Shown here piece after piece: positions 5,697 through 59,490 of a DNA stretch of 64,000 bases. The notes under the pieces were generated by a model. The model did not search any database, was not told the DNA's origin, and was given only the letters and a program-made list of their open reading frames with translations. This stretch comes from Minisyncoccota bacterium (GTDB lineage: Bacteria > Patescibacteriota > Minisyncoccia > Phycocordibacterales > PALSA-1337). The first letter of the stretch is position 1. Each line of letters starts with the position of its first letter. The stretch covers positions 13,769 to 77,768 of the forward strand of contig DATDZD010000002.1 in NCBI GenBank assembly GCA_036516895.1, given 5' to 3'. The translations under genes and the position numbers were made by a program.

Positions 5697-6830
5697 ATGT
5701 TTGACTTAAAGATAATGCATTCCGTTCTTCAGCAATTAGAAGAAGAGCGAGGTATACCAAAAGAGAAAATGCTTGAGGCGATTGAGCTGGCTTTGGCTAC
5801 TGCCTACAAAAAAGAATACGGCAAAAAAGGTCAGATTATCAGGGCTATATTTGATTCTAATAGCGGAAAAGTGGAGTTCTATCAGGTCAAGATAGTAGTA
5901 GATGAATCAAAGGTCATTATGGAAGATGAGGAGGAGCAAGAAATGGACCTAAAAACTATTGACCAAGAAAATATAAAGGTCAGATTCAATCCCGAACATC
6001 ATATTCTCCTAGCCGATGCAAAAAAGATAAAAAGAGATGCAAAAATAGATGATGATATCGTCTTTCCTCTGGAATTGAAAGAAAACTATGGTCGTATTGC
6101 CGCTCAAACAGCAAAGCAGGTCATCATTCAAAAGATAAGAGAAGCGGAAAAAATATCTGTTTTGAGCGAATATGGACAAAAAGAAGGAGAAATAGTGTCT
6201 GGAACAGTCCAACGACTAGAAAGAGGAGCATTATTCATTGATATGGGACGAGCAGTGGGAGTAATACCATACGAAGAACAAATACCAAACGAACATTACA
6301 AACAAGGAGAGCGCGTAAGAGCTTATTTATACGCAGTTGAAGAAACTCCAAAGGGTATTATGCTGAAGCTTTCCAGAGCACACCCGAAATTTTTATCAAA
6401 ACTTTTTGAAATAGAAGCTCCTGAAATAGCGCAAAGAGTAGTGGAGGTCAAAGCCATAGCTCGCGAGGCGGGTGCTCGTTCAAAGATAGCTGTTCATTCC
6501 ACTGACAGTCATATAGACCCTATCGGCTCTCTTGTCGGACAACGCGGGGTGAGAGTTTCCACAGTTATGAGCGAATTAGGTGGAGAAAAGATTGATATTA
6601 TTGAGTGGAACGAGGATATGTCAAAATTCATAGCCGAGGCACTCTCTCCGGCAAATATAGCAAGCATTGAACTTATTAAAGAAGAAAATCGCGCCATAGT
6701 AAAAGTCTCTGAAGACCAACAATCTCTAGCTATAGGAAAAGGCGGTCAAAATGTGCGTTTAGCCGCAAAACTCACTGGATGGAAAATAGATATTCAGCCA
6801 GTAGCTATAGGTAGTATAAAAAGCGAATAA
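5697..6830 (+). CDS. nusA: Transcription termination/antitermination factor NusA
   Basis: N-terminus MFDLKIMHSVLQQLEEERGIPKEKMLEAIELALATAYKK is the NusA N-domain signature, followed by S1 and KH domains (GSLVGQRGVRV..., IGKGGQNVRLAAKLTGWKIDI). The track start at 5457 overlaps the divergent pilB, so the ATG at 5697 is preferred. Confidence 0.85.
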   Translation: MFDLKIMHSVLQQLEEERGIPKEKMLEAIELALATAYKKEYGKKGQIIRAIFDSNSGKVEFYQVKIVVDESKVIMEDEEEQEMDLKTIDQENIKVRFNPEHHILLADAKKIKRDAKIDDDIVFPLELKENYGRIAAQTAKQVIIQKIREAEKISVLSEYGQKEGEIVSGTVQRLERGALFIDMGRAVGVIPYEEQIPNEHYKQGERVRAYLYAVEETPKGIMLKLSRAHPKFLSKLFEIEAPEIAQRVVEVKAIAREAGARSKIAVHSTDSHIDPIGSLVGQRGVRVSTVMSELGGEKIDIIEWNEDMSKFIAEALSPANIASIELIKEENRAIVKVSEDQQSLAIGKGGQNVRLAAKLTGWKIDIQPVAIGSIKSE

Positions 6831-6937
6831 TTTATTCATTAATTGGCAGGTATGCTATAATATGTATCGCAGGTATCATTAAATATTATTTATCAATCAT
6901 TAATTATAAAAAATTAGCAAAATAACGACAACTATTT

Positions 6938-7726
6938 ATGAAATCATCAATATCTAAAAAAATAACCTTATTATTCTCCGTATTCTCACTCTGTATATTC
7001 TTTGGCATTTCTACTGTTCAAGCCAATACAGACACGCAAATAGAAGCAATAAACCCAAAACCTGTTGCCACACGACCTCCTTTAGGTGAAAAAATAAAAG
7101 CCGATATAGAAAACCGTATTGAAAAAAATAAAGAAATGCGCAACGACGAATTGGGGCAGAGACAAGAAATAAAGAATATCAAACAAACCGCTAAGCAAGA
7201 GATAAAGGATTTGCGCTTAGAAAAGCGTGAGGAAATAAAACTAATTCGCGCGTCTAGCACAGATATGTTCAAGAGAACAGCTGAAATTCGCAAAGAAATC
7301 GCAAAGAAGATGGAAGTGAACAAATTTGAAATTCGCAAAAACGCTCTTGTGAGAGAGCTTAAAGTAGCCATAAGCAACCTTAATAATATCAATATCCGCA
7401 TTGAATCTAGAATCATCAAAGCTGAAAGCGAGGGTCGTAATATGATAGATGCAAAAGAGCTTCTGGTCACAGCCAATAATAAATTAGAAACAGCAAAAGC
7501 TGAAGTGCAAAGATTTGAAAATATCAGTATAGATTTAAACATCAATAATACAAACAACACAGTCGCCTCTACATCAGAAATTGACCTTGTAAAACCAAGA
7601 CAATTGGGAGATACAGCGATAAAAAGCGTCAGGGAAGCCAAAAGCGCATTCCAAAAAGTCGTGAATGCCATCGCTCGCGCTATGGGACTTGGAAACACAG
7701 CAAGCACAACAACTGTGACAAATTAA
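6938..7726 (+). CDS. Hypothetical secreted coiled-coil protein with signal peptide, Lys/Glu-rich
   Basis: Signal-like N-terminus ITLLFSVFSLCIFFGISTVQA followed by highly charged repetitive helix-forming sequence. Confidence 0.5.
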   Translation: MKSSISKKITLLFSVFSLCIFFGISTVQANTDTQIEAINPKPVATRPPLGEKIKADIENRIEKNKEMRNDELGQRQEIKNIKQTAKQEIKDLRLEKREEIKLIRASSTDMFKRTAEIRKEIAKKMEVNKFEIRKNALVRELKVAISNLNNINIRIESRIIKAESEGRNMIDAKELLVTANNKLETAKAEVQRFENISIDLNINNTNNTVASTSEIDLVKPRQLGDTAIKSVREAKSAFQKVVNAIARAMGLGNTASTTTVTN

Positions 7727-7744: not shown

Positions 7745-8074
7745 ATGGATATAAATACTCAAAATTCAAGCGGTATGATGAATGGGATGTCCCCCACCCC
7801 AAACAATGAGAAAAAAGTGGGGCCTATTGTTGGAGCACTTATTATTGTTCTTATACTCATAATAGCGGCTCTTTATTTCTTTGGACAAAAACTCAATACA
7901 AATATTCCTTCTGAAACTCCATCTGCAAACGAAAACACCGAGATTTCATCGGAACAGACATCTCTCAATGTTCCACCTAATTCCATGACTGCCACAGCCA
8001 CAGAACCAGACAACATTCAATCCCTCCAATCAGACCTTGACATTCAGCTCAAAGATGTAGATTATAGCTTCTAG
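7745..8074 (+). CDS. Hypothetical small membrane protein
   Basis: 109 aa with one predicted TM segment (VGPIVGALIIVLILIIAALYFF). No recognisable family. Confidence 0.35.
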   Translation: MDINTQNSSGMMNGMSPTPNNEKKVGPIVGALIIVLILIIAALYFFGQKLNTNIPSETPSANENTEISSEQTSLNVPPNSMTATATEPDNIQSLQSDLDIQLKDVDYSF

Positions 8075-32153: not shown

Positions 32154-33794
32154 ATGAAAAATATTTTGTCTAAAAGAATAATTTCAGGAATACTCATTAT
32201 AACAATGATATCCTCTGTAATAGGATTATCTTTTCCAAAAAAATCACAAGCCATATTTGGTATTGGGGATATTACTTTTGACCCAACATCTTTTGCTCAA
32301 CATGTAATAAATACAGCAAACACTACCGCCACTTCCTTTTCATCTTATTCCATGCAATTCAAAGAATATGTCCTAGACGGACTTGCAACCGCTCTCGTAA
32401 AACAAATCATACGACAAATGACAGCCAGCGTAGTCAACTGGATAAACTCCGGTTTTGAAGGAAGTCCTTCTTTTGTTACAAATCCAGGTTCATTTTTCCT
32501 TGATGTGGCAGACCAAATCACTGGAGATTTTCTGGCGAAAGCTGGTGGACCACTTACAGCACTTTGTTCTCCATTCAGCATAGACATTCGTATCGCTCTA
32601 GCTTTCAAATATCATCCAAATGTTCTCAAAAAATATGAATGTACTTTGGGAAAAATAATTACAAATAGTAAAAATGCTGTAAAAGGTGCGAGTATAAATG
32701 GATTCACAGCTGGAGATTTCAGCCAAGGGGGATGGCCAGCTTTTGTTTCCCTGACTACAGAACCACAGAATAATTATATTGGAGCGTATCTCATAGCGGA
32801 GGATGAGCTTTCTATAAGGGTGGCGAATGCTCAACTTCAGCAAAAAGATGAAATAAGTCAGGGAAGAGGGTTCTTATCTTGGAGAAAGTGTAGAAAAACT
32901 GGGGAGACAGCGACCGTTCAAGGTTCCGAATCAGCATATGTTGACCATGAACTTGGAGATAATAGTGATCCAAGTAGAACAGAGAGCAACGCTCCTGTAG
33001 TTCATACAAACCAAACCGGAAAAGATTGTGAAATCCAAACCCCAGGCTCTATTATCGTAAGCTCTCTTGAGGCAAATATAAATGGTCCTTTGCATGAACT
33101 CCAGCTTGCAGATGAAATAAATGAAATCGTTAATGCTCTCTTTGCTCAACTCGTCACTCAAGTGTTAACAAAAGGATTGGGATCACTTAGCGGAAGCGGT
33201 CCTAGCGATTCTTCTTCATACATCTATCAGATTCAACAAGAAGCAAAAAATGACACATCCCAAGTCGCTCCAATAAAAGCTGAGATATTAAAAAACATGA
33301 CGACATATTTGGACAACACTTTGCAATACAAGAACAATAAAAACCAGTCTCTAAATCTAATGCTTGATGTCAAAAATTCATACGAATTAGCAAAATCATG
33401 TTATGCTGGAAAAATATCTTCTTCCAACCCTCCACTATCTTCATCACAAGCAAGTTTCGCTCAAAGCAAAATAACTGAAATAGATTCCATCATAAATACT
33501 AAGGTAGCACCTCCTGCTACAAAACTTCTCACGGAAGCACAGGAAGCTGATGCTCGTTATGCAACTCTCAAAAAGATAGAAACTGATGTCAATGCAGCAA
33601 AGACTACCAATGACCTCAACATCCAAAGTCAACAATACAGTCAGATGATTCAAAACAGAACACTTACATCAGCGTCAGACATAGCCAATTCTCAACAAGA
33701 GCTAGACGACACCAAAATTGTGATTGATCCAATGAAAACAGACGCTGGAAGAAAACTTCAAGAATGTCAGTTATTTCCATCGGGAAGCATATAA
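32154..33794 (+). CDS. Hypothetical secreted protein (signal peptide)
   Basis: 546 aa. N-terminal hydrophobic signal ending KSQA. No recognisable catalytic motif. Confidence 0.45.
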   Translation: MKNILSKRIISGILIITMISSVIGLSFPKKSQAIFGIGDITFDPTSFAQHVINTANTTATSFSSYSMQFKEYVLDGLATALVKQIIRQMTASVVNWINSGFEGSPSFVTNPGSFFLDVADQITGDFLAKAGGPLTALCSPFSIDIRIALAFKYHPNVLKKYECTLGKIITNSKNAVKGASINGFTAGDFSQGGWPAFVSLTTEPQNNYIGAYLIAEDELSIRVANAQLQQKDEISQGRGFLSWRKCRKTGETATVQGSESAYVDHELGDNSDPSRTESNAPVVHTNQTGKDCEIQTPGSIIVSSLEANINGPLHELQLADEINEIVNALFAQLVTQVLTKGLGSLSGSGPSDSSSYIYQIQQEAKNDTSQVAPIKAEILKNMTTYLDNTLQYKNNKNQSLNLMLDVKNSYELAKSCYAGKISSSNPPLSSSQASFAQSKITEIDSIINTKVAPPATKLLTEAQEADARYATLKKIETDVNAAKTTNDLNIQSQQYSQMIQNRTLTSASDIANSQQELDDTKIVIDPMKTDAGRKLQECQLFPSGSI

Positions 33795-33802
33795 AATAAC
33801 CC

Positions 33803-35707
33803 ATGAAAAAACACCTGCCTACAATTCTCACTTTGATGATAATCCTAGCAATAGGAGTAGCGATTTTGACTCCAAATATAGCCATGGCAACAGTTTCAGG
33901 AACCAGTATAGTTACAGGAGTCGGTGTAAGCGTGATAAATACAACCCTCGCAAACATTGGAAACGCCATTCTCGGCTGGACAGCCGTTCTTGTTACAGCA
34001 GGCGGAGCTTTCTTGAGTATGGCCATAAACCTCACTACCCATATAGACAAAATATATGAAACTGTATCAGGTATAAAATCCGTATGGGTTACGATAAGAG
34101 ATATATCTAGCATATTTATAATATTTGCTCTCTTATATTTCTCCATAAGGACAATATTGGGTTTTGGCGGTTATAGCACCACAGGCAATCTCAAGGGTCT
34201 TATAGTAAATATATTTATAGCCGGTCTTCTTATAAACTTCAGTCTTTTCTTCGTCAGAGTGGCTATTGACGCTTCAAATCTAGTCTCTTTGCAGTTCTAT
34301 AATGCTATTGCTCCCGATACTTCTAAAAACTGGAGCGTTGGAGATGTATTCAATAATGGCGGTCTCTCAAATGTGTTCATGCAGAGTCTCAAGATTCCGA
34401 CAATATACCAACAATCAAAGAGTTCACAAGGTTTTGATATAGCGGCTGGAATCGGTTTTGCTATCCTTGGAGGAATCATCATGATGGTTACTGCGGCTAT
34501 AAGCTTCTTCGCCGCTGCCATTGCTTTTACTGCTCGCACCGCTATTTTACTTTTTGTTATGGCTATGTCTCCTATATTCTTCGTGGGAATGATATTTCCG
34601 GAAGTAAAAAAGAAAGTGTCCGATAAAATTTCTGGTTTGCTTTATAGTCAATGTGTATTTATGCCTGTATACCTTTTTCTCATGTACATTGCTCTCAAAA
34701 TAATAAGTGATGAAAATTTCATGAAAATATTCAACCCAAATACTTCTGGAGTAGCCGATACAAATGGTTTTGGTCCTGTTTGGATAGGTATTATCATTCA
34801 ATATGCCATCGCCCTTATATTTATAAATATTCCACTAGTAGCGGCAATAGAAATGGGAGCAATCGGTATGAAATGGGCGCCCGGATCATCCGGAGCAAAT
34901 GCTGTAAATAAATGGCTTGGGGGAAAGATTGGGGGATTTGCTGGTAGGAATATTGCTGGTAGAGCTGGGCAGTTGTCTGGTGTGGGCTTTGATAGAATGG
35001 CAGCTTCAGCTCAAGGTTCTTCTCTTGGCAAAGGTACATCAACTGTTCTTCGCGCTCTTGGTATTAGTCAGGGAATTCGTGGCGGATTAACTGCTACAGA
35101 GAAAGGAAAATATGGTGGAACACAAAGTCTTGGTGATATTCAGAAGGAAAATAAGGAGAGGGCAAGAACTATTTCTGGGGTACAGAGAATGAAAGAACAA
35201 CATTTAGCTCTTGCAGCAGTCATTGGTTCAAAGAATACTTCAATAACACCAGCGCAAATGGATAAATTTAGAGAAACTGTGGATAAAATGGGTAATAAAG
35301 ATTTTGAAAATATGAATTTTGAAACCATTAAAGACCCTGTTCTTGCTTCTAACCTATCATCTAAACAAGCTGAATCATTATTGGAAGGAGATATACTTAC
35401 CTCGCAACAGAAAGACGAGTTCAAAAAAATACGAAAAGATAAGATTGTCACAATCATTAATTCTGGAACAGCAACAGATGCCGAAATACATATGAAAAAA
35501 TTATCAGGAAAAGAATTGTCTAAAATGGACAAGACTGTTATTAAGAATCCGAATGTCTTAAAATACTTAACCCCAACTCAACTATTAGAAATGAGAGATA
35601 TTGATGGAGATACTAAAAAATTCATTGGTGACTATATAGAAAATACTGCACTAGGAGACCATAAAGCAAAAGGTTATATAAGAAAAAATCGTACGGAGTG
35701 GAGCTAA
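33803..35707 (+). CDS. Polytopic membrane protein with a hydrophilic C-terminal domain, a VirB6/TrbL-like candidate
   Basis: 634 aa with at least 7 hydrophobic helices in the first 360 aa, then a soluble C-terminal half. The architecture and position upstream of VirB3-like and VirB4 genes resemble Gram-positive VirB6 analogues. This is architecture-based inference only. Confidence 0.4.
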   Translation: MKKHLPTILTLMIILAIGVAILTPNIAMATVSGTSIVTGVGVSVINTTLANIGNAILGWTAVLVTAGGAFLSMAINLTTHIDKIYETVSGIKSVWVTIRDISSIFIIFALLYFSIRTILGFGGYSTTGNLKGLIVNIFIAGLLINFSLFFVRVAIDASNLVSLQFYNAIAPDTSKNWSVGDVFNNGGLSNVFMQSLKIPTIYQQSKSSQGFDIAAGIGFAILGGIIMMVTAAISFFAAAIAFTARTAILLFVMAMSPIFFVGMIFPEVKKKVSDKISGLLYSQCVFMPVYLFLMYIALKIISDENFMKIFNPNTSGVADTNGFGPVWIGIIIQYAIALIFINIPLVAAIEMGAIGMKWAPGSSGANAVNKWLGGKIGGFAGRNIAGRAGQLSGVGFDRMAASAQGSSLGKGTSTVLRALGISQGIRGGLTATEKGKYGGTQSLGDIQKENKERARTISGVQRMKEQHLALAAVIGSKNTSITPAQMDKFRETVDKMGNKDFENMNFETIKDPVLASNLSSKQAESLLEGDILTSQQKDEFKKIRKDKIVTIINSGTATDAEIHMKKLSGKELSKMDKTVIKNPNVLKYLTPTQLLEMRDIDGDTKKFIGDYIENTALGDHKAKGYIRKNRTEWS

Positions 35708-36417
35708 AATATTTTAAAATTATGGATAATCAAAATACACAAAACTTACCTGCAGATATTCTCAAAGCGATTGAGTCTTCTGATGTCTATACTCATCTTG
35801 AAAGTATAGGGGATAGATACAATCTTCTTATTGATCAAATTGGTCAATTAAATGCTGATACAGAAAAATTAATGGTTGGGAAATTAAAATCAGAGATATT
35901 TGTAATCACCATCGCAAAAGATTTGGAAATATCACAAGAAATAGCACAAAAAATATCTGACGATATCAATAATGAGATATTTACTGGTCTTCGTGAATCT
36001 CTTCGTAAAATGCAGGAACAGAGTGAAAAAAAATTCACAAACCCGCTCACACCTCCACCTCCTCCTACTTTCCAAATCCCTAAACCAGTACCACTAACAC
36101 CAACCACTCCTATACCCAAACCGCCGATTACTCAACCTCCTCAAAAAATAAACATCTCTTCAATAGAAAAAGTCGGCAACTTTACCATTGAAAAACGCCC
36201 ATTATCAAATTCCCCCCAATATAAAGATACAAACTTAAAAAGAGAAGATGTTTTGAGGGATATGGAAAACCCAACAACAAAGAGTGGTGTATCTTTTGTA
36301 GACCATCTCCTCTCCAAGCCATTATCAAATGAAATGCAAACAGAAACAAAAAATAAAACCGCTCCTCCACAAGGTTTGCCAGAATATACAGCCGACCCAT
36401 ATAGAGAGCCCATATAG
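35698..36417 (+). CDS. Hypothetical proline-rich protein
   Basis: PPPPTFQIPKPVPLTPTTPIPKPPITQPPQK low-complexity linker. No TM segment. Confidence 0.35.
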   Translation: MELKYFKIMDNQNTQNLPADILKAIESSDVYTHLESIGDRYNLLIDQIGQLNADTEKLMVGKLKSEIFVITIAKDLEISQEIAQKISDDINNEIFTGLRESLRKMQEQSEKKFTNPLTPPPPPTFQIPKPVPLTPTTPIPKPPITQPPQKINISSIEKVGNFTIEKRPLSNSPQYKDTNLKREDVLRDMENPTTKSGVSFVDHLLSKPLSNEMQTETKNKTAPPQGLPEYTADPYREPI

Positions 36418-36435
36418 TAATGCTATAATAAACCC

Positions 36436-36864
36436 ATGCGTTTTCAAGTCCCACAGTTCATTGAAGTAGAAGATAAAATTTTCGGGCCATTAACCCTGAA
36501 ACAATTCATATATCTTGCCGGGGGAGCGGGACTTTCTTTTGTCATATATCAATCCCTCGGCTCTCTTGTATTGGCATTCTTGCCTATCACCATCATCATG
36601 TCTTTTTCTTCAGCATTGGCCTTTTATAAAATAAACAATAAGCCCTTCATTTTCGTCGTTGAAGCGGCATTCAAATACTTTTTCTCAAGCAAATTGTATA
36701 TATGGAAAAAAGGGGAGAACAGCAAAGCGTTGTCAAAATCAGATTCGGAAGCAAAACAATACGCCTCTGTCATGGTTCCAAAAATTTCAGATAGCAAACT
36801 AAAGGATTTGACATGGAGCTTGGATATAAAAGAGAGCATGTACACAGATAGAAATCAAAAATAA
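36436..36864 (+). CDS. Small two-TM membrane protein, VirB3-like candidate
   Basis: 142 aa with a hydrophobic hairpin LAGGAGLSFVIYQSLGSLVLAFLPITIIMSF. It lies directly upstream of the VirB4-like ORFs. Confidence 0.35.
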   Translation: MRFQVPQFIEVEDKIFGPLTLKQFIYLAGGAGLSFVIYQSLGSLVLAFLPITIIMSFSSALAFYKINNKPFIFVVEAAFKYFFSSKLYIWKKGENSKALSKSDSEAKQYASVMVPKISDSKLKDLTWSLDIKESMYTDRNQK

Positions 36865-36865
36865 T

Positions 36866-37498
36866 ATGGCTACGAGTCAAAAAACAACTCAAGATTTTGT
36901 ACCGATACGAGAAATACGCGACGGTGTTGTCATATTGAAAGATGGTTCAATGCGCGCTTTGGTATTGGCTTCGTCTCTCAATTTCGCCTTGAAATCAACC
37001 GATGAACAAAACGCCATAATTCTTCAATTTCAAAATTTCCTCAACTCTCTTGACTTCTCTGTGCAGATTTTCGTCCAGTCAAAAAAGCTTGATATAAGGC
37101 CGTATATTGCTCTACTTGAAGAACGATACAAGGAGCAAGTGACTGAACTTATGAAAATACAAACCAGAGAATACATAGAGTTTATAAAGACTTTCGTGGA
37201 AAATTCCAATATTATGACAAAAAGTTTCTTTTTGATAGTGCCTTACATGCCCCCAACGCTTACTGCAAGCAAAAATCCGGTCAGCAATCTCTTTAATAAA
37301 AAAACTGAAGATAAAACAGTTATAAACGCAGAATTTGAAGAATACAGAAGCCAGCTGGAACAGAGGGTGGGGGTAGTAGAGCAGGGTTTGGTCAGATGCG
37401 GAATAAGGGTGGCGGAACTTGGAACAGAGGAGGTGGTAGAATTGTATTATAAAATATTCAACCCCGGAGAAACAGAGAAACCGATACAGATAAACTGA
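36866..37498 (+). CDS. VirB4 N-terminal-domain-like protein (first part of a split VirB4)
   Basis: DFVPIREIRDGVVILKDGSMRALVLASSLNFALKSTDEQNAIILQFQNFLNSLDFSVQIFVQS resembles the N-terminal region of Gram-positive VirB4/ConE ATPases. The 210 aa here plus the 613 aa of the next ORF approximate full-length VirB4. Confidence 0.4.
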   Translation: MATSQKTTQDFVPIREIRDGVVILKDGSMRALVLASSLNFALKSTDEQNAIILQFQNFLNSLDFSVQIFVQSKKLDIRPYIALLEERYKEQVTELMKIQTREYIEFIKTFVENSNIMTKSFFLIVPYMPPTLTASKNPVSNLFNKKTEDKTVINAEFEEYRSQLEQRVGVVEQGLVRCGIRVAELGTEEVVELYYKIFNPGETEKPIQIN

Positions 37499-37545
37499 TT
37501 ATTCACCAGAAAATCTCCACATAAACAAATAAAAACAATAAAAAA

Positions 37546-39387
37546 ATGAGTATATTTAGCAAATTATTAGGAAAAAAAGAACAAGAAAAGCCAATCGTTT
37601 CTCTTATGCCACAAGAGATATATGAAGCTGGCATCTTGGAACTCAAAGATGTCATTGCCCCTTCGGCTCTCAAAATAAGCCCTAAAGAAATAAACCTTGG
37701 AGAAAAGGTGGCTAGAACATTTTTTGTTATATCCTATCCACGCTTTCTTTCTGAAAGCTGGTTTGCTCCTATTATAAATCTTGATAAAGTCTTCAATATT
37801 TCTATTTTCATCCATCCAGTAGACACCGCAAAAATACTTCGTCATTTCCAAAAGAAAGTAGCGGAGGTCCAAAGCCAAATATCACAAAGAGAAGATAAGG
37901 GTTTAGTGCGGGACCCTATGCTTGATACCGCCTACCAAGACCTTGAGGTGCTCCGAGACAGCTTGATGCAAGCACAAGAAAAGATATTTGATGTTGGCGT
38001 ATACATCACTCTATATGGAGACTCTAGTGCAGAGCTTGATAAAACAGAGTCAGAAATAAAATCCATCCTGGAATCAAAGCTCGTATACATAAAGCCCGCT
38101 CTCTTTCAACAGGAAAGTGGGTACAGAAGCGTTCTTCCTATTGCCAATGATGAGCTAGCGGTGCACTCAAAGCTCAATTCTTCTCCTCTTTCTTCTCTCT
38201 TTCCTTTCGTTTCTTTTGACCTAACATCAGACAAAGGAATTCTCTACGGAATCAATCGCCACAACTCGTCTCTTGTACTTTTTGATAGATTTCTCTTGGA
38301 AAATTACAATTCTGTAACATTTGCAAAAGCTGGAGCGGGAAAATCATACTGCACAAAGCTGGAAATACTCCGTACTCTTATGTTTGACACAGATGTCATT
38401 GTTATAGACCCGGAAAAAGAATACGAGTACATGGCAGAAGCCACTGGAGGAAAATATTTTAATATTTCTCTAAATTCAGAACATCATATCAACCCTTTTG
38501 ACCTTCCTATTCCTAGAGAAGACGAGTCGGCTATAGATGTCCTTCGTTCAAACATTATCAATCTTGTCGGACTCTTTCGCATAATGCTCGGAGGTCTATC
38601 CCAAGAAGAAGACGCTATTATAGACCGAGCTATTACAGAGACATACGCTCTCAAAGATATTACAGCAGAATCAAACTTCAGAAATGTTGAACCGCCACTT
38701 CTATCCGACTTTGAGCTTGTTTTGGCGGGTATGGAAGGAGCCGAATCGCTTGTAGAACGACTGACAAAGTATACAAAAGGCACATGGTCGGGCTTTATAA
38801 ACCGTCCTTCAAATGTTGATATAAACAAAAAATTCGTGGTTTTTTCACTTCGCGATATGGAAGACGAACTCAAACCAGTAGCAATGTATATTGTTACTCA
38901 CTATATCTGGAACGCTATACGCAAACAGCTTAAAAAACGCCTTTTGGTCATAGATGAAGCATGGTGGATGATGAAATCAGAAGATACGGCTTCATTTCTA
39001 CTCGGTCTGGCAAAAAGAGGTCGCAAATACTATCTAGGTCTAGCCACAATCACCCAAGATGTTGATGATTTTCTCAAATCTCCGTATGGTTTGCCTATTA
39101 TTACAAATTCTTCAATTCAAATACTCCTCAAACAATCTCCTTCATCAATAGACAATATCCAAAGAACTTTCAACTTAACAGACGAAGAAAAATATCTTCT
39201 CATTGAATCGGATGTGGGGGAGGGAATATTCTTTGTCGGGCTAAAGCATGTAGCCATAAAAGTCGTAGCCTCATATACAGAAGACCAGATTATTACCACA
39301 AACCCCGCCCAGGTCATGGCAATTCAGCAAGCAAAGAAAGATTTGGAAATGAGTCATGCGATGACGGAGAAAGAAGTGTCAGTATAA
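37546..39387 (+). CDS. VirB4/TraC/TrbE-family conjugation-type ATPase (C-terminal part)
   Basis: Walker A TFAKAGAGKSYCTKLE, Walker B RLLVIDEAWWMM, and a conserved ITQDVDDF region typical of VirB4. Confidence 0.7.
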   Translation: MSIFSKLLGKKEQEKPIVSLMPQEIYEAGILELKDVIAPSALKISPKEINLGEKVARTFFVISYPRFLSESWFAPIINLDKVFNISIFIHPVDTAKILRHFQKKVAEVQSQISQREDKGLVRDPMLDTAYQDLEVLRDSLMQAQEKIFDVGVYITLYGDSSAELDKTESEIKSILESKLVYIKPALFQQESGYRSVLPIANDELAVHSKLNSSPLSSLFPFVSFDLTSDKGILYGINRHNSSLVLFDRFLLENYNSVTFAKAGAGKSYCTKLEILRTLMFDTDVIVIDPEKEYEYMAEATGGKYFNISLNSEHHINPFDLPIPREDESAIDVLRSNIINLVGLFRIMLGGLSQEEDAIIDRAITETYALKDITAESNFRNVEPPLLSDFELVLAGMEGAESLVERLTKYTKGTWSGFINRPSNVDINKKFVVFSLRDMEDELKPVAMYIVTHYIWNAIRKQLKKRLLVIDEAWWMMKSEDTASFLLGLAKRGRKYYLGLATITQDVDDFLKSPYGLPIITNSSIQILLKQSPSSIDNIQRTFNLTDEEKYLLIESDVGEGIFFVGLKHVAIKVVASYTEDQIITTNPAQVMAIQQAKKDLEMSHAMTEKEVSV

Positions 39388-53579: not shown

Positions 53580-53948
53580 ATGGAAACACAAACAGGTATA
53601 GGAGAATTTGGACCAATTTATGAAGGAATAAAAGGAAAATATGCTATAGATTTTTTATTGAAAAAGAAATCTGGGGAAGTTCCTGGTGCAATGAAAAGAA
53701 AAGAATTGGGAAATATTGATTTTATTTATGGAAAGCAGGGTGAGCAAGGTTACGGATTAGCTCATATTGAAGAATATCATCCAGATGTTCTTCCTTATCT
53801 TGTGTCAATTATTCAACATGGAGAAATATTCAAGCAAGCTAAAGATCGCATTATTATTGTTCATAAAGTTCCTTTAGAAAAAGGGGTGGCCGTGATAAGA
53901 CTGGATTGGAATGGTATACGGAAACAGTGGCTTGTTAGTGCTTTTTAA
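53580..53948 (+). CDS. Hypothetical protein
   Basis: 122 aa with no recognised family. It is preceded by the conserved motif shared with comM. Confidence 0.45.
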   Translation: METQTGIGEFGPIYEGIKGKYAIDFLLKKKSGEVPGAMKRKELGNIDFIYGKQGEQGYGLAHIEEYHPDVLPYLVSIIQHGEIFKQAKDRIIIVHKVPLEKGVAVIRLDWNGIRKQWLVSAF

Positions 53949-55570: not shown

Positions 55571-56434
55571 TTATGGTTTTAATTTTTTTAGCACCTCTTT
55601 TATTTCTTCTTTTTGTTTTTTCTGTAGCTCTTTCATTTCTCTCTTGTGTCTCGCCGTCATCTTTTTTATATCCTCTGCAGATGGCAATGATTCTGGATAA
55701 ATGTTTGACTTAATCAACACCCCTCTGATGTTCCTATTATTTGTTACATGCTCATTAAGTATACTACCTTTTCCTTGTAGGTCTTTTCTTTTTGTATTTT
55801 CGGTAGTTATAGCTGTTGCAAATTCTTTTGCTGAGATTGTTACCTCTGGTAAAATGTCTGCAAGCGGTGCATTTTTCTTTGCACCAAGTCTCCTTTTCAT
55901 ATCTTCTGTTGTTTTTCCACCAAATAGTGCCTTGTCACCAAAGCTTCGTATTTCAGATATACCACGACCATCTACACCTCTACCGAATACTAATACGGCG
56001 AAAGCCTTTTCAGTAATGGTTAGCTTTTCTCTAGCGCTAATTCTCTTGAGTTCTGCTATTCTTTGTTCAATCATTTCCATCTTTCTGGTTTGTGTTACAA
56101 AATATGCTTGTGCAAAGGCAATTTCTGTTTTTCGAGGATCTCCATTAAGAGTAATTAGATAACAAGCGTATCTAGTCAGCTTAATATCTGGTATTTCTTG
56201 CTTCGTGTTTTTTCCAACAATTATTAGCTTCGTGACGTCACGAAAGTGATCCGCAACAGAACCCCTGGCATTTTTACAAGCTTCTTTTGCTCTCACGATA
56301 GCCGTCTCAAAGTTTTCCCAACGCAAATAACCCAATAAAGGATACAAATCTCGTGCATACCAATACTCTACGCCATTTTCACGACGGACATTATCAAAAG
56401 TTTTGTATAGAATTTGTAATTGAGTATTTTCCAT
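55571..56434 (-). CDS. DinD / Bro-N (KilA-N-like) domain protein
   Basis: The N-terminus NGVEYWYARDLYPLLGYLRWENFETAIVRAKEACK resembles Bro-N/DinD antirepressor-like domains, and a Lys-rich coiled-coil tail follows. The family call is from memory. Confidence 0.45.
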   Translation of the reverse strand: MENTQLQILYKTFDNVRRENGVEYWYARDLYPLLGYLRWENFETAIVRAKEACKNARGSVADHFRDVTKLIIVGKNTKQEIPDIKLTRYACYLITLNGDPRKTEIAFAQAYFVTQTRKMEMIEQRIAELKRISAREKLTITEKAFAVLVFGRGVDGRGISEIRSFGDKALFGGKTTEDMKRRLGAKKNAPLADILPEVTISAKEFATAITTENTKRKDLQGKGSILNEHVTNNRNIRGVLIKSNIYPESLPSAEDIKKMTARHKREMKELQKKQKEEIKEVLKKLKP

Positions 56435-56537: not shown

Positions 56538-57296
56538 TTACTTATTATTTTCCCAAATATAATCAAACATAATACGAAATGTCTCAGTGATGTATTTACT
56601 TTCAATTACCACAGTAACAATTGATTCTTTGAAGTTGGTAATAGCTACTTTATCTCCATAAATAATGATTTGAGCGGGAATGTTTAGTTTTTCTGTAGAG
56701 ACTTTCTTTCGAGTAATGAGGTATTTCTCATCTTCTCCAACTGGCATCACGGTTAGTTGTCCTTCGACATATGGAGTAATGGCTTTTGTTCGTATATTCT
56801 TTGCTGTTTGTTTTTCTATATGCTCTTTTGTCAGATTAAGAATCTCTGGTATGGCTTTATATATAGGAGCACTTATGATTAAAATATCTTGCCCAATATC
56901 GAGAATATCCCCATGTACTCTTTCAATGCCCTCCACTCCTTCATAAAATTGGATGTTCGGTTTACCTGAAAGAGCGTTAAACTCTGATGATAATATGCCG
57001 AATATGGTACTGAAGTCTGAAAAAGCGTGGTTAAGGTTCTGTCTATTTTTCTCAACCATTTCCTTAATATTCCTAGGATGTTTTGGCAAGAAAAGTGCGA
57101 TCTTGCCTATGTCATCTCGCTTCTCAACAAGATTTAGAGCTATGAGCTGGTCAATAATTTTATATGTAAGTGCTCTACCCACAGCTGTTTTTGAAGCTAT
57201 TGTTTTTGCCGAAGAGAAGCCATTGCTTAAAAGATAGGTATATATTTTTGCTTGTTCAAGACTAAGTCCGCATTCCACTAATATTTTTTCATTCAT
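56538..57296 (-). CDS. TrmB-like winged-helix transcriptional regulator
   Basis: The N-terminal HTH LSLEQAKIYTYLLSNGFSSAKTIASKTAVGRALTYKIIDQLIALNLVEK is typical of the TrmB family, and the C-terminal region is TrmB_C-like. Confidence 0.5.
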   Translation of the reverse strand: MNEKILVECGLSLEQAKIYTYLLSNGFSSAKTIASKTAVGRALTYKIIDQLIALNLVEKRDDIGKIALFLPKHPRNIKEMVEKNRQNLNHAFSDFSTIFGILSSEFNALSGKPNIQFYEGVEGIERVHGDILDIGQDILIISAPIYKAIPEILNLTKEHIEKQTAKNIRTKAITPYVEGQLTVMPVGEDEKYLITRKKVSTEKLNIPAQIIIYGDKVAITNFKESIVTVVIESKYITETFRIMFDYIWENNK

Positions 57297-57395
57297 TTTG
57301 TTATATTGTTATGACAATAATATGCTTATTTATCAAGGATACTATAGAAATCGTTATAATACAAGGATTAAAGTGTGGATAAGTGTTGTTATGTA

Positions 57396-57424
57396 TTGAC
57401 AAATCTGTTCAGTATGCTATGATT
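57396..57424 (+). promoter_or_regulatory. Candidate sigma-70-like promoter (TTGACA, 17 bp spacer, ATGATT) driving the GC-rich islet operon
   Basis: TTGACA is at 57396-57401 and ATGATT at 57419-57424, with the first islet ATG at 57434. A perfect DnaA box TGTGGATAA at 57374-57382 lies just upstream. Confidence 0.3.
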
Positions 57425-57433
57425 GTTTCAGAT

Positions 57434-57781
57434 ATGAAAACAACATACTTCGGTTTCGGGATCGCTCCCAGCATGTTTCCCTCGAATTGCACCATTCGTA
57501 AGCAGGAGCTTACGGTGGAGCAGGCAAAGGAAACCATCGCCGGGGGCGTGACCTCCTGCCTCAACCCTAGCCACAAGGCGAGCATTGAGGTGATGGAGAC
57601 GAGGTTCGGCATGAAGGTGGAGATACCGGCGAAAGCGCCGAGCGTCTCCCTCCAAGCTGGAGACCGCTTGGTGGTGATGGGGGTCAGGGGACTCCCCCGG
57701 TTGGAAAACCGGCACGAGTACACCCCCGAGGAGGTGGCAGGTGCGAAGTTCGACTTCGCGCTCTTCACGGTCGGGGAGTAA
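57434..57781 (+). CDS. DUF1874-like (STIV B116 / AcrIII-1 / Crn2 ring nuclease family) candidate; GC-rich foreign gene
   Basis: 115 aa from MKTTYFGFGIAPSMFPSN.... The pattern aromatic-xxx-S-x-M-F, a His at residue 47 (NPSHKAS), GDRLVVMGVRG and RLEN resemble the DUF1874 fold family as recalled from memory. Local GC is about 60% against about 33% for the host. The start follows the promoter at 57396. Confidence 0.4.
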   Translation: MKTTYFGFGIAPSMFPSNCTIRKQELTVEQAKETIAGGVTSCLNPSHKASIEVMETRFGMKVEIPAKAPSVSLQAGDRLVVMGVRGLPRLENRHEYTPEEVAGAKFDFALFTVGE

Positions 57782-57959
57782 TCTCGTAGGGTTGAAGATG
57801 AACCTAAAAACTTTCCTCTCCTGCAGAGTGTGCAGAGAACATGTGATGGTACAGCATATAAATGTATCCATAATGTGATTTGGGCAACCAAGTCCGACTC
57901 TGGGGAAGCTCCAGGGCGCCTGACAAGCGGAAACTGTTGGGATGATTCATTTCATCTCT

Positions 57960-58010
57960 TGCCTCTCGGAATGTATATTCCGACTGATGAGTCCGAAAGG
58001 ACGAAAGGCA
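57960..58010 (+). ncRNA. Hammerhead ribozyme, type III (HHR-1)
   Basis: UGCCU-C^-UCGGAAU-GUAU-AUUCCGA-CUGAUGA-GUCC-GAAA-GGAC-GAA-AGGCA. Stem III is UGCCU/AGGCA with A15.1-U16.1. The cleavage site is C17, after 57965. Stem I is a 7 bp hairpin. The CUGAUGA core is at 57984-57990. Stem II is GUCC/GGAC with a GAAA loop (G10.1-C11.1), followed by G12 A13 A14. All invariant core nucleotides are present. Confidence 0.75.
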
Positions 58011-58233
58011 GAATATCTTTGAATTTCCTTGTGAAAGCAAGTTTGTAAGATTAGAGAATTGAGTCTTGCAGTAAAAATAAAGGTGTCATACCAAATCATG
58101 CAAGTGAGGTGAGTATGAAAAAGAAAAGCTGAAAGTGCTTTCGACCTAACTTGGCCGAGATGAACAGCCCGGCCCATCATCCAGAGAGTGACCCTGCTAC
58201 GGTACGACAGTTCATTTTGACTGTCATACCGAA

Positions 58234-58446
58234 ATGGGATGGGTGCTTGCACCCATGTTCAAAATTTTCAGACCGATTCCTGCTAGTAAGGAATCGGTAA
58301 AGGATTTGCTCCGTAGCGTGATTGGTAACAATCAGCGTAAGGAGTGGTATAAATCCCGCTCAAGGACCACCATCCTTGAGCACTTCATTGAGTCCTTGAT
58401 TGAAAGATTATTGAGGATTCATAGAGTTTCAGTTTCAGTTTTTTAA
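58234..58446 (+). CDS. Small hypothetical ORF within the HHR-flanked unit
   Basis: 70 aa with no strong RBS and no recognisable family. It may be non-coding. Confidence 0.2.
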   Translation: MGWVLAPMFKIFRPIPASKESVKDLLRSVIGNNQRKEWYKSRSRTTILEHFIESLIERLLRIHRVSVSVF

Positions 58447-58474
58447 AAATTAAATAAAGAAAGGAGGTGAAAGG

Positions 58475-58834
58475 ATGCGAAGTTCGTGTCGGGAAGACGG
58501 GAGGCGCAATACCCTTGGTTATTTCAGAGGTGCTCGGGAATTTTTTCCTCAAGGCACCTTTAAGGAAATCGAGTTAGTTGTGGCTCTCGATCCAGTCTGG
58601 CATTCATCGGATGGAATCAGCGAGGTAGTCATGGCGATTGGGGCTGCAGAGCGTAAGCTCAATAGTCTCAAAGACCGAAAGGATTACCTGGTAAGATCCA
58701 TTGCCGATGATCAGAATTGGTGGCGTCCTTCCCCAGAAATGAAACAGCTATATAGACAAGAGCTTAAAACTCTTCGTCAAGAAGCTGTGAAATTTCAGAG
58801 GGAACTGGATGAACTCCAAGCCATTATTGGATGA
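58475..58834 (+). CDS. Hypothetical protein (islet ORF) with a strong Shine-Dalgarno sequence
   Basis: AAAGGAGGTGAAAGG sits immediately before the ATG, a context absent from host genes. 119 aa with a C-terminal coiled-coil-like region. Confidence 0.5.
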   Translation: MRSSCREDGRRNTLGYFRGAREFFPQGTFKEIELVVALDPVWHSSDGISEVVMAIGAAERKLNSLKDRKDYLVRSIADDQNWWRPSPEMKQLYRQELKTLRQEAVKFQRELDELQAIIG

Positions 58835-58972: not shown

Positions 58973-59027
58973 CTTCTGTCTCGGAATATGTATTCCGACT
59001 GATGAGCTCAAAAGAGCGAAACAGAAG
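58973..59027 (+). ncRNA. Hammerhead ribozyme, type III (HHR-2)
   Basis: CUUCUGU-C^-UCGGAAU-AUGU-AUUCCGA-CUGAUGA-GCUC-AAAA-GAGC-GAA-ACAGAAG. Stem III is 7 bp (CUUCUGU/ACAGAAG). The cleavage site is C17, after 58980. Stem I is identical to that of HHR-1. The CUGAUGA core is at 58999-59005 and stem II is GCUC/GAGC. Confidence 0.75.
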
Positions 59028-59073
59028 TTTTTATAAATATTTTTTAAATCAAAAAAAGAAAGGAGGTGAAAAA

Positions 59074-59406
59074 ATGAAAATCGTGCGTTTGGAGCCAGAG
59101 AAGATTCTCGAAGCGATTCGTATCGCAAGTGAGAGTTTTGGAACATTCCACTTTACTCATCTGCCGGAGAGGATCAGGGATGGTGTAGATGAGCTTGCAG
59201 AGGATTTTAGGCTATACTCGTTTTGGGAAAGTAGCGACTTTTGTTGCTGTTTTTCTCCAAAGTGGGCTGCTGAAGATGCCTCTGATAGGGGAATGGCGGT
59301 GGATTCCAAGGATCTCGCGAAAAGGAAGAAGGGATTCGCAAAAGTCTGCCAAATTTTTGGCTGTTCAGCTAAGGATGAGGTGGTTGGGATCCGTCCAATT
59401 CTTTGA
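59074..59406 (+). CDS. Hypothetical protein (islet ORF) with a strong Shine-Dalgarno sequence
   Basis: AAAGGAGGTGAAAAA sits before the ATG at 59074. 110 aa, MKIVRLEPEKILEAIRIASESFGTF.... No family recognised. Confidence 0.5.
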   Translation: MKIVRLEPEKILEAIRIASESFGTFHFTHLPERIRDGVDELAEDFRLYSFWESSDFCCCFSPKWAAEDASDRGMAVDSKDLAKRKKGFAKVCQIFGCSAKDEVVGIRPIL

Positions 59407-59471
59407 GCTTCTAAAACTGCGACCTACGGCACGCGGGGAAGAGTAACTTCCTGGCAACAGAATTGTTACAG

Positions 59472-59490
59472 GAGAATCCATGATTCTCCA
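59472..59490 (+). terminator. Hairpin GGAGAATC-CAT-GATTCTCC followed by an A/T-rich tract, a candidate islet terminator
   Basis: Perfect 8 bp stem. A weak T-tract (aatttattaatttcg) follows. Confidence 0.25.

Follow-up and report, generated by a model that had tools for sequence, protein, structure and literature searches.

Positions 57434-57781 (+) of the window, by which we mean the whole 64,000-nt stretch of contig DATDZD010000002.1 that was analysed, hold a gene for a 115-aa protein with a DUF1874/Csx16-like, ring-nuclease-type fold, in which the key residues are His47 and the lid G86-L-P-R-L-E-x-R-H-E-Y96. The gene is the first of a short operon with the order promoter, ring-nuclease gene, hammerhead ribozyme, structured spacer with a 119-aa reading frame (ORF119), second hammerhead, 110-aa reading frame (ORF110), and terminator, and a gene for a TrmB-family regulator lies divergently upstream. 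The translation from the ATG is MKTTYFGFGIAPSMFPSNCTIRKQELTVEQAKETIAGGVTSCLNPSHKASIEVMETRFGMKVEIPAKAPSVSLQAGDRLVVMGVRGLPRLENRHEYTPEEVAGAKFDFALFTVGE. A preliminary description of this DNA had reported the same open reading frame (ORF) of 115 aa, which was found again in the ORF listing, and a GC content of about 60%, far above that of the host, which agrees with the measured 59.5% (79% at third codon positions, GC3) against 36.2% for the window.

Gene callers took a 132-aa form of the product, beginning at the alternative start GTG 57383. Since the promoter (57396-57423) sits downstream of this codon, ATG 57434 is the right start, and the lengths of the homologues (113-116 aa) support the 115-aa form. 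The ORF is not a chance one, because it has 314 homologues at E ≤ 1e-3 in a set of 5.8 billion proteins, 16 invariant alignment columns, and a confidently predicted AlphaFold structure (predicted local distance difference test score, pLDDT, of 92.9). Two long ORFs run antisense over the gene on the minus strand (57409-57891, 160 aa, and 57428-57871, 147 aa); they were considered non-coding, and their recurrence in other loci a by-product of the high GC content.

The AlphaFold (AF2) monomer was built with an alignment of 64 homologues of the 115-aa protein (A1). In the Foldseek comparison of this model with solved structures, the first 17 places were all occupied by DUF1874 chains at TM-scores of 0.65-0.75, including AFV3-109, the Crn2 domain of Csx1-Crn2, SIRV1 ORF114, STIV B116, and AcrIII-1 (6scf). 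The model therefore matches the STIV B116 fold named in the preliminary description as well as the other DUF1874 structures. When A1 was aligned by hhalign with the gp29/B116 family (A2; 18 sequences of the SIRV1 gp29 family, gp29 being taken from its genome record), the probability was 95.4% with an E-value of 1.9e-8 over 108 columns. The sole match of phmmer in the Protein Data Bank was AFV3-109 (E 0.006), which was found by hmmsearch at 5e-4.

The Pfam profile of DUF1874 (PF08960) matched the 115-aa protein over profile positions 13-100 of 101 (88 positions) with an E-value of 0.0015, but at 19.1 bits the score stayed under the gathering cut-off of 26 bits; among the 64 members of A1, the same profile matched 21 at E ≤ 0.01 (best 1.5e-4). 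The PADLOC model of Csx16 (PDLC01147), from a library without a curated cut-off, matched the protein at E 2.9e-5 and 22.8 bits over 77 of 105 profile positions, as well as 29 of the 64 members. In the PHROGs, just one unnamed family was matched (E 1.3e-3). The DUF1874 fold and homology of the protein can be regarded as settled, although Pfam's own threshold was not reached. Because both profiles match its members, the clade is placed between DUF1874 and Csx16, whose tested members all cleave cyclic tetra-adenylate (cA4). From these comparisons, the protein is best described as representing a new clade of its own within the DUF1874/Csx16 ring-nuclease superfamily, found mainly in Patescibacteria and distinguished by a remodelled pocket.

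The named homologues are nearly all from the ultra-small Patescibacteria (Taylorbacteria, Uhrbacteria, Saccharibacteria, and others); many carry a precomputed PF08960 match, and one was named "YddF family" by NCBI. With the A1 profile, HMMER found 337 clusters at E ≤ 1e-3 and 234 at E ≤ 1e-10 among 1.84 billion representatives. Longer members of 228-355 aa were considered as informative fusions, but they contain no extra Pfam domain and are thus probably products of mis-called starts in GC-rich DNA.

The invariant columns of A1 are M14, F15, N44, P45, H47, I64, P65, G86, L87, P88, R89, R93, H94, E95, Y96, and E100. The His at residue 47, counted from the promoter-proximal Met, had been singled out in the preliminary description and was confirmed in the translation; it is invariant in the 64 sequences and pairs with His47 of gp29 (AcrIII-1) in the hhalign alignment and with the GH motif of AFV3-109. 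In AcrIII-1, the general acid is His47, a residue conserved without exception, and its replacement by Ala (H47A) slows the enzyme more than 2500-fold (10.1101/778746). The invariant R89-L90-E91 pairs by hhalign with R85-L86-E87 in the lid of AcrIII-1, where R85 lies on a mobile loop (residues 82-94) and locks the closed dimer (10.1101/778746). The other pairings between the clade and gp29 are M14-M14, S/T50-T50, and S13-N13. The most conserved columns map to four elements of the cA4 pocket of gp29, namely the beta1 loop, the helix starting from H47, the strand at about 64-71, and the lid, which is two residues longer than that of gp29 and carries a new invariant run, G-L-P-R-L-E-x-R-H-E-Y. The C-terminal pattern GDxLVV...R...RLE noticed earlier was located as G76-D-R-L-V-V81, R85, and R89-L-E91. 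The proposed N-terminal pattern, aromatic-xxx-S-x-M-F, was only partly borne out: the actual string is Y5-F-G-F-G-I-A-P-S13-M14-F15, in which Ser and Met are adjacent, so that no S-x-M-F occurs. Judged by these alignments, the catalytic machinery looks retained, and the ligand specificity may differ.

The divergent regulator (56538-57296, minus strand) is a TrmB-family protein of 252 aa with the architecture of TrmBL2: a winged helix-turn-helix (HTH), a long coiled coil, and a C-terminal domain of the PLD-like type. It scored 34.6 bits with the Pfam profile PF01978, over the cut-off of 25.6. Its AF2 model (pLDDT 90.3) aligned in full length with the archaeal chromatin protein TrmBL2 (5bpd) in Foldseek (E 8e-14), and the C-terminal domain resembles the PLD folds of NucT and Zucchini. 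A sensor of cyclic oligoadenylate (cOA) in this partner was also considered; a CARF-like domain was checked for and is absent. Genomic context was surveyed in 60 related genome loci, which together with the window make up 61 sources and 655 kb. A TrmB-family protein of about 255 aa is encoded upstream of the gene in 41 of the 61, usually divergently and 140-360 bp away, and among the 60 genome loci the TrmB family is the sole conserved neighbour.

The intergenic region contains a near-consensus sigma-70 promoter with an extended -10 element at 57396-57423 (+), consisting of TTGACA, a 16-nt spacer, and TG-n-TATGAT (11 of 12 matches). Because it ends 10 nt before the ATG, the ring-nuclease mRNA is expected to be nearly leaderless. 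The promoter is conserved as TTGAC(A/T)...TATGCTATGATT in six loci (the window, L004, L017, L018, L019, and L033). Beside the start of the regulator gene, at 57298-57317, the palindrome TTGTTA-N8-TGACAA can be read as a candidate TrmB operator; in the form TTGTYA-N8-TGACAA, it is found at the same position in four loci (the window, L018, L019, and L033). A half-site, TTGACAA, overlaps the -35 box at 57396. The palindromes and this half-site fit repression of the gene by the TrmB-like protein, as we infer from the promoter sequence.

The preliminary description had mentioned ribozymes on the islet. Two type III hammerhead ribozymes accompany the gene on the same strand and were recovered by Rfam, by a custom covariance model built from 21 copies, and by their core motif. 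Hammerhead 1 (57958-58014, plus strand) scored 42.2 bits with Rfam RF00008 (E 1.3e-6, match at 57958-58012), below the gathering score, and 69.6 bits with the custom model; despite the low Rfam score, its core is intact and its stems are compensated. Self-cleavage is predicted after C57965 and would give the mRNA a 3' end 184 nt past the stop codon of the ring-nuclease gene. Hammerhead 2 (58973-59027, plus strand) scored 49.4 bits with RF00008 against a gathering score of 48.5, and 73.4 bits with the custom model, with cleavage predicted after C58980, so that the two cleavage sites are 1015 nt apart. The core CUGAUGAG...CGAAA occurs twice in the 64 kb, against 0.02 expected. A rod-like fold of the 1015-nt unit between the cleavage sites was considered and rejected, the predicted fold being branched with 67-69% of the bases paired.

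Between and behind the ribozymes are a structured spacer RNA without a convincing gene (58015-58440, plus strand; no Rfam family at E ≤ 1) and two cassette ORFs. ORF119 (58475-58834, plus strand) has a coiled-coil-like look and is preceded by the leader AAAGAAAGGAGGTGAAAGG-ATG. For ORF110 (59074-59406, plus strand), the start was moved to the ATG behind the repeated GGAGG leader, because position 59002 chosen by gene callers falls inside hammerhead 2. The two ORFs share this AT-rich leader with a strong Shine-Dalgarno sequence (AAAGAAAGGAGGTGAAA), which is repeated at 58441-58477 and 59040-59076; neither product had a Pfam, PHROG, or NCBIfam match above the cut-off. A terminator-like hairpin (59471-59489, plus strand; a consensus match only) closes the operon just before the convergent ruvB.

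In the 61 sources, the custom model gave 34 matches at E < 1e-3, distributed over 19 of them and all on the strand of the DUF1874-like gene. Most of these hammerheads follow the gene at a distance of 80-2500 nt, a locus often having two or three of them, and in the 19 loci they separate variable small cassettes. Rfam at its gathering score detected no ribozymes in 14 related loci, because most copies score under that cut-off. No hammerheads are present in the viral and plasmid relatives. In L024 (1912-1978) and L037 (2855-2921), the gene is preceded at about 100 nt by a variant hammerhead whose stem II has a long insertion, so that the gene is an internal cassette there. Given the predicted cleavage sites, the ribozymes would release each cassette as an RNA of its own with a 5'-OH and a 2',3'-cyclic phosphate end. 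In L066, a 1042-nt unit just downstream of the gene is bounded on both sides by a perfect 229-nt direct repeat (6796-7024 and 7838-8066) with a hammerhead in each copy; a third, diverged copy begins at 6356. By its arrangement, this repeat looks like a greater-than-unit-length copy of an approximately 1-kb hammerhead element of the retrozyme kind. In L028, a DUF3800-IX RNA (6482-6550; Rfam 42.1 bits, above the gathering score) lies about 3 kb downstream of the gene, after three hammerheads.

The GC content of the gene is 10-25 points above that of its flanks in nearly all loci, and in 18 loci its GC3 is higher by a mean of 0.29 than that of the neighbouring TrmB gene, which itself matches the other host genes. 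Since the excess is family-wide and the adjacent TrmB gene is host-like, the high GC content is a maintained family trait and no mark of recent import. The transcripts are also unusually structured. The z-score of the minimum folding energy of the ring-nuclease coding sequence was -3.6 relative to dinucleotide shuffles and -4.0 relative to synonymous-codon shuffles. The latter gave a mean of -2.6 for 57 chromosomal homologues (36 of them below -2), -3.8 for homologues with an adjacent TrmB gene, and -4.5 for those with downstream hammerheads. By dinucleotide shuffling, host genes ranged from -2.0 to +0.7, and SIRV1 gp29 was at +1.2, ORF119 at -6.6, and the spacer (58015-58474) at -10.4. Periodic GC3 was rejected as the cause, because the synonymous-codon shuffles agree and z-scores are near 0 in the very homologues whose GC3 is highest (0.96-0.97). 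RNAalifold found no structure shared by the 57 codon-aligned genes, and for a subset of 18 close genes its signal was weak; the excess is thus generic, with no one shared fold, and selection seems to favour folding as such. Possibly, it protects the RNAs against RNases, including cOA-activated ones, or stabilises those released by the ribozymes.

Taken together, and with limited confidence, we think that the protein is probably a stand-alone cOA ring nuclease. The mechanism is proposed by analogy with AcrIII-1/Crn2, YddF, and Csx16, all of which cut cA4 experimentally: YddF is a confirmed cA4 ring nuclease (10.1101/778746), and Csx16 was shown to be cA4-specific and to resemble AFV3-109 in structure (PMC12409355). 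The protein would form a homodimer and bind the cOA in a pocket at the dimer interface, over which the invariant G-L-P-R89-L-E-x-R-H94-E-Y loop would close as a mobile lid. Cleavage of the ring would be metal-free, by in-line attack of ribose 2'-OH groups with His47 protonating the leaving group, and would yield linear products with 2',3'-cyclic phosphate ends, thereby turning off cOA-activated effectors. Transcription from the strong promoter would give the nearly leaderless mRNA, with the divergent TrmBL2-like protein as its probable repressor, and the hammerhead would free this mRNA from the variable cassettes downstream. The quenched signal could come from a system elsewhere in the genome, or from a host or competitor.

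Several observations weigh against this reading as a cOA ring nuclease. In the window, no Cas10, CARF, SAVED, or CRISPR array was revealed by scanning 61 ORFs with PADLOC and Pfam, by Pfam searches of the ten largest ORFs, or by a scan for tandem repeats; this is consistent with the earlier remark that no type III CRISPR-Cas is visible there, although the two scans of the 61 ORFs listed the best 25 families only and could hide a weak match. Nor does Cas10, CARF, SAVED, or a CRISPR array recur near the gene in the 60 related loci, where the 149 ORFs downstream of it include no recurrent defence or cOA family. To our knowledge, type III CRISPR is rare in Patescibacteria. The PF08960 score is under its cut-off, and NCBIfam gave no meaningful match, with no Csx16 model at E ≤ 1. 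In the hhalign alignment, N8, S11, N65, R66, and Q81 of gp29 are replaced by F8, A11, K67, A68, and G83, and E88 of gp29 is not retained, being N92 here and G in the family consensus. Four of the swapped residues (N8F, S11A, N65K, and R66A) are invariant in the gp29 family, as is E88. Three of these (N8, S11, and R66) contact cA4 in AcrIII-1, where the contacts are N8, S11, N13, S49, T50, R66, Q81, and the main chain of I69 and L92 (10.1101/778746). The claimed resemblance to DUF1874 ring nucleases thus holds for the fold, the homology, His47, and the lid Arg, but not for Pfam's threshold or for several cA4-contact residues. In addition, SIRV2 gp37, a DUF1874 protein, is reported to have no anti-CRISPR effect in its native virus and to bind a host lysine methyltransferase instead (10.1101/2023.01.10.523387).

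Because conserved contact residues of gp29 are swapped, the protein could have a different ligand or could have lost binding. An alternative that we consider unlikely but serious is that this fold and pocket serve another ligand (for example cA3, cA6, SAM-AMP, or a cyclic di- or trinucleotide of the CBASS type) or act as a non-cutting sponge. F8, A11, A68, and G83, which stand in place of the gp29 contacts N8, S11, R66, and Q81, are each conserved in at least 90% of the clade (A1), the new invariant lid motif R93-H94-E95-Y96 brings in a second His, and in the loci surveyed the gene has no tie to the type III systems that use cA4. There is also a precedent in Csx15, once predicted to be a ring nuclease, which hardly cleaved at all and is possibly a sponge (PMC12409355). 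On the other hand, the invariant catalytic His and lid Arg are hard to square with a pure sponge, and the tested members of the two nearest families are all cA4-specific. Less probable still is a non-enzymatic protein that uses the DUF1874 fold to inhibit a cellular enzyme, which we regard as very unlikely: SIRV2 gp37 sets an example and no cOA system is nearby, but conservation is centred on the ligand-pocket elements with the catalytic His invariant, and there is no conserved partner gene except that of TrmB. The least probable alternative, and a remote one, is that the protein acts on the RNA ends made by the hammerheads (5'-OH and 2',3'-cyclic phosphate), binding, trimming, or helping to join the cassette RNAs. 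The association of same-strand hammerheads with the gene in 19 of 61 loci and nowhere else in the 655 kb searched, the position of the gene itself behind a hammerhead in L024 and L037, and the transesterification chemistry common to ring nucleases and hammerheads speak for it. Yet no hammerhead was detected in about two thirds of the loci with the gene, nor in the viral and plasmid relatives, and no DUF1874 protein is known to act on linear RNA.

The preliminary description had read the gene as an anti-type-III-CRISPR gene on a recently acquired mobile islet, which now appears improbable, though less so than the protein binder. Some relatives do occur on phage-like contigs or plasmids: 11 (43-59% identity) are on predicted viral contigs of 5-107 kb, where they are surrounded by early genes and by genes for, among others, a RecE-like exonuclease, a Sak4-like annealing protein, SSB, DNA methyltransferases, an anti-restriction protein, ParA, and excisionases, and one of 34% identity is on three Planktothrix plasmids. 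The adjoining HTH regulator recalls acr-aca pairs, and the downstream genes are hypervariable, with no family in more than six loci. A Bro-N domain gene (55571-56434, minus strand; phrog_8036, E 3e-74) lies between yebC and the TrmB-like gene; because it is missing there in L004 and L017, the yebC-ruvB site appears to take up phage-type genes. Against recent acquisition, three Taylorbacteria (the window, L004, and L017) have the TrmB-gene pair at the same place, flanked by yebC and ruvB, although the identity between their TrmB proteins is no more than about 60%; the pair is thus an old resident of this site. In L010, it is at a different site. The GC3 excess is family-wide with a host-like TrmB gene beside it, no integrase was found within 6 kb of the gene, and tblastn found no relative in 50,697 sequenced phage genomes (INPHARED). 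This copy is chromosomal, whereas viral or mobile carriage defines AcrIII-1, and neither in the window nor in the 60 related loci does the gene lie in or next to a type III CRISPR-Cas locus, the placement that characterises Crn2 and Csx16. The anti-type-III-CRISPR role accordingly stays hypothetical. Pfam did match a phage-integrase family protein elsewhere in the window, at a distance of over 6 kb from the islet.

Compared with known systems, the protein shares only 14-23% identity with AcrIII-1/Crn2 members (PF08960; SIRV1 gp29, STIV B116, AFV3-109, Bacillus subtilis YddF, and Marinitoga Csx1-Crn2). The present clade differs from them in its sub-cut-off Pfam score, the swapped N8, S11, N65, and R66, the lost E88, and the longer lid with a new motif, and the gene differs in being chromosomal, syntenic in Patescibacteria, and paired with TrmB, with no type III locus nearby. 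The PADLOC model of Csx16 matches the protein and nearly half of its family, but Csx16 is defined by its place in type III CRISPR loci, and the match is no stronger than that to DUF1874. As in acr-aca operons, a small putative counter-defence gene stands beside an HTH regulator, with palindromic promoter sites of which one lies over the -35 box; Aca proteins, however, are small and encoded downstream in the same operon, whereas the regulator here is divergent, 252 aa long, and TrmBL2-like, and the pair is a stable chromosomal resident. The type III hammerheads in one orientation between short cassettes recall the hammerhead-punctuated operons of phages and bacteria and the retrozymes of eukaryotes, and the 229-nt repeats around the 1042-nt unit of L066 recall retrozyme-type units. 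The arrays described here differ in lying on Patescibacterial chromosomes and in having small ORFs with Shine-Dalgarno leaders as cassettes. New in this analysis are the pairing with a regulator, the cassettes punctuated by hammerheads, and the hyper-structured, GC-rich mRNAs; no paper linking hammerheads or ring nucleases to Patescibacteria was found in the literature searched.

Known ring nucleases either belong to type III CRISPR loci, where they serve as off-switches, or act as viral anti-CRISPRs. The present clade kept the catalytic His and rebuilt much of the ligand pocket, and its hosts, in which it is stably maintained under a dedicated regulator, are bacteria mostly devoid of CRISPR that grow attached to other microbes. 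If the protein cleaves cA4, the quenched signal could be the cell's own, phage-related, or the host's; if it prefers another ligand, the chemistry of the DUF1874 fold would be widened. Operons punctuated by hammerheads, with mRNAs more structured than synonymous recoding allows, also provide a concrete case for a function of bacterial hammerheads. A more speculative reading, doubtful as a whole and about as improbable as the mobile islet, would join these features into an undescribed Patescibacterial accessory-gene array, in which a TrmB-controlled promoter drives GC-enriched short cassettes, the transcript is cut by hammerheads, and each RNA is selected for stable folding. The cassettes would persist and perhaps spread as self-cleaved, possibly circularised RNAs in the manner of retrozymes, which is considered because of the perfect ribozyme-bearing repeat in L066. 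The ring nuclease would be the conserved lead cassette, its mRNA hardened for translation while cOA-activated RNases are active.

Elsewhere in the window, a small ORF just upstream of ruvC (53580-53948, plus strand) has a PF18809 (PBECR1) toxin-type nuclease domain, annotated in the identical contig L001. The region 32154-39384 (+) contains two large ORFs (546 and 634 aa) without a Pfam match upstream of a TraG-like P-loop ATPase (37546-39384), and it may be part of a Patescibacterial type IV secretion or conjugation-like machinery.

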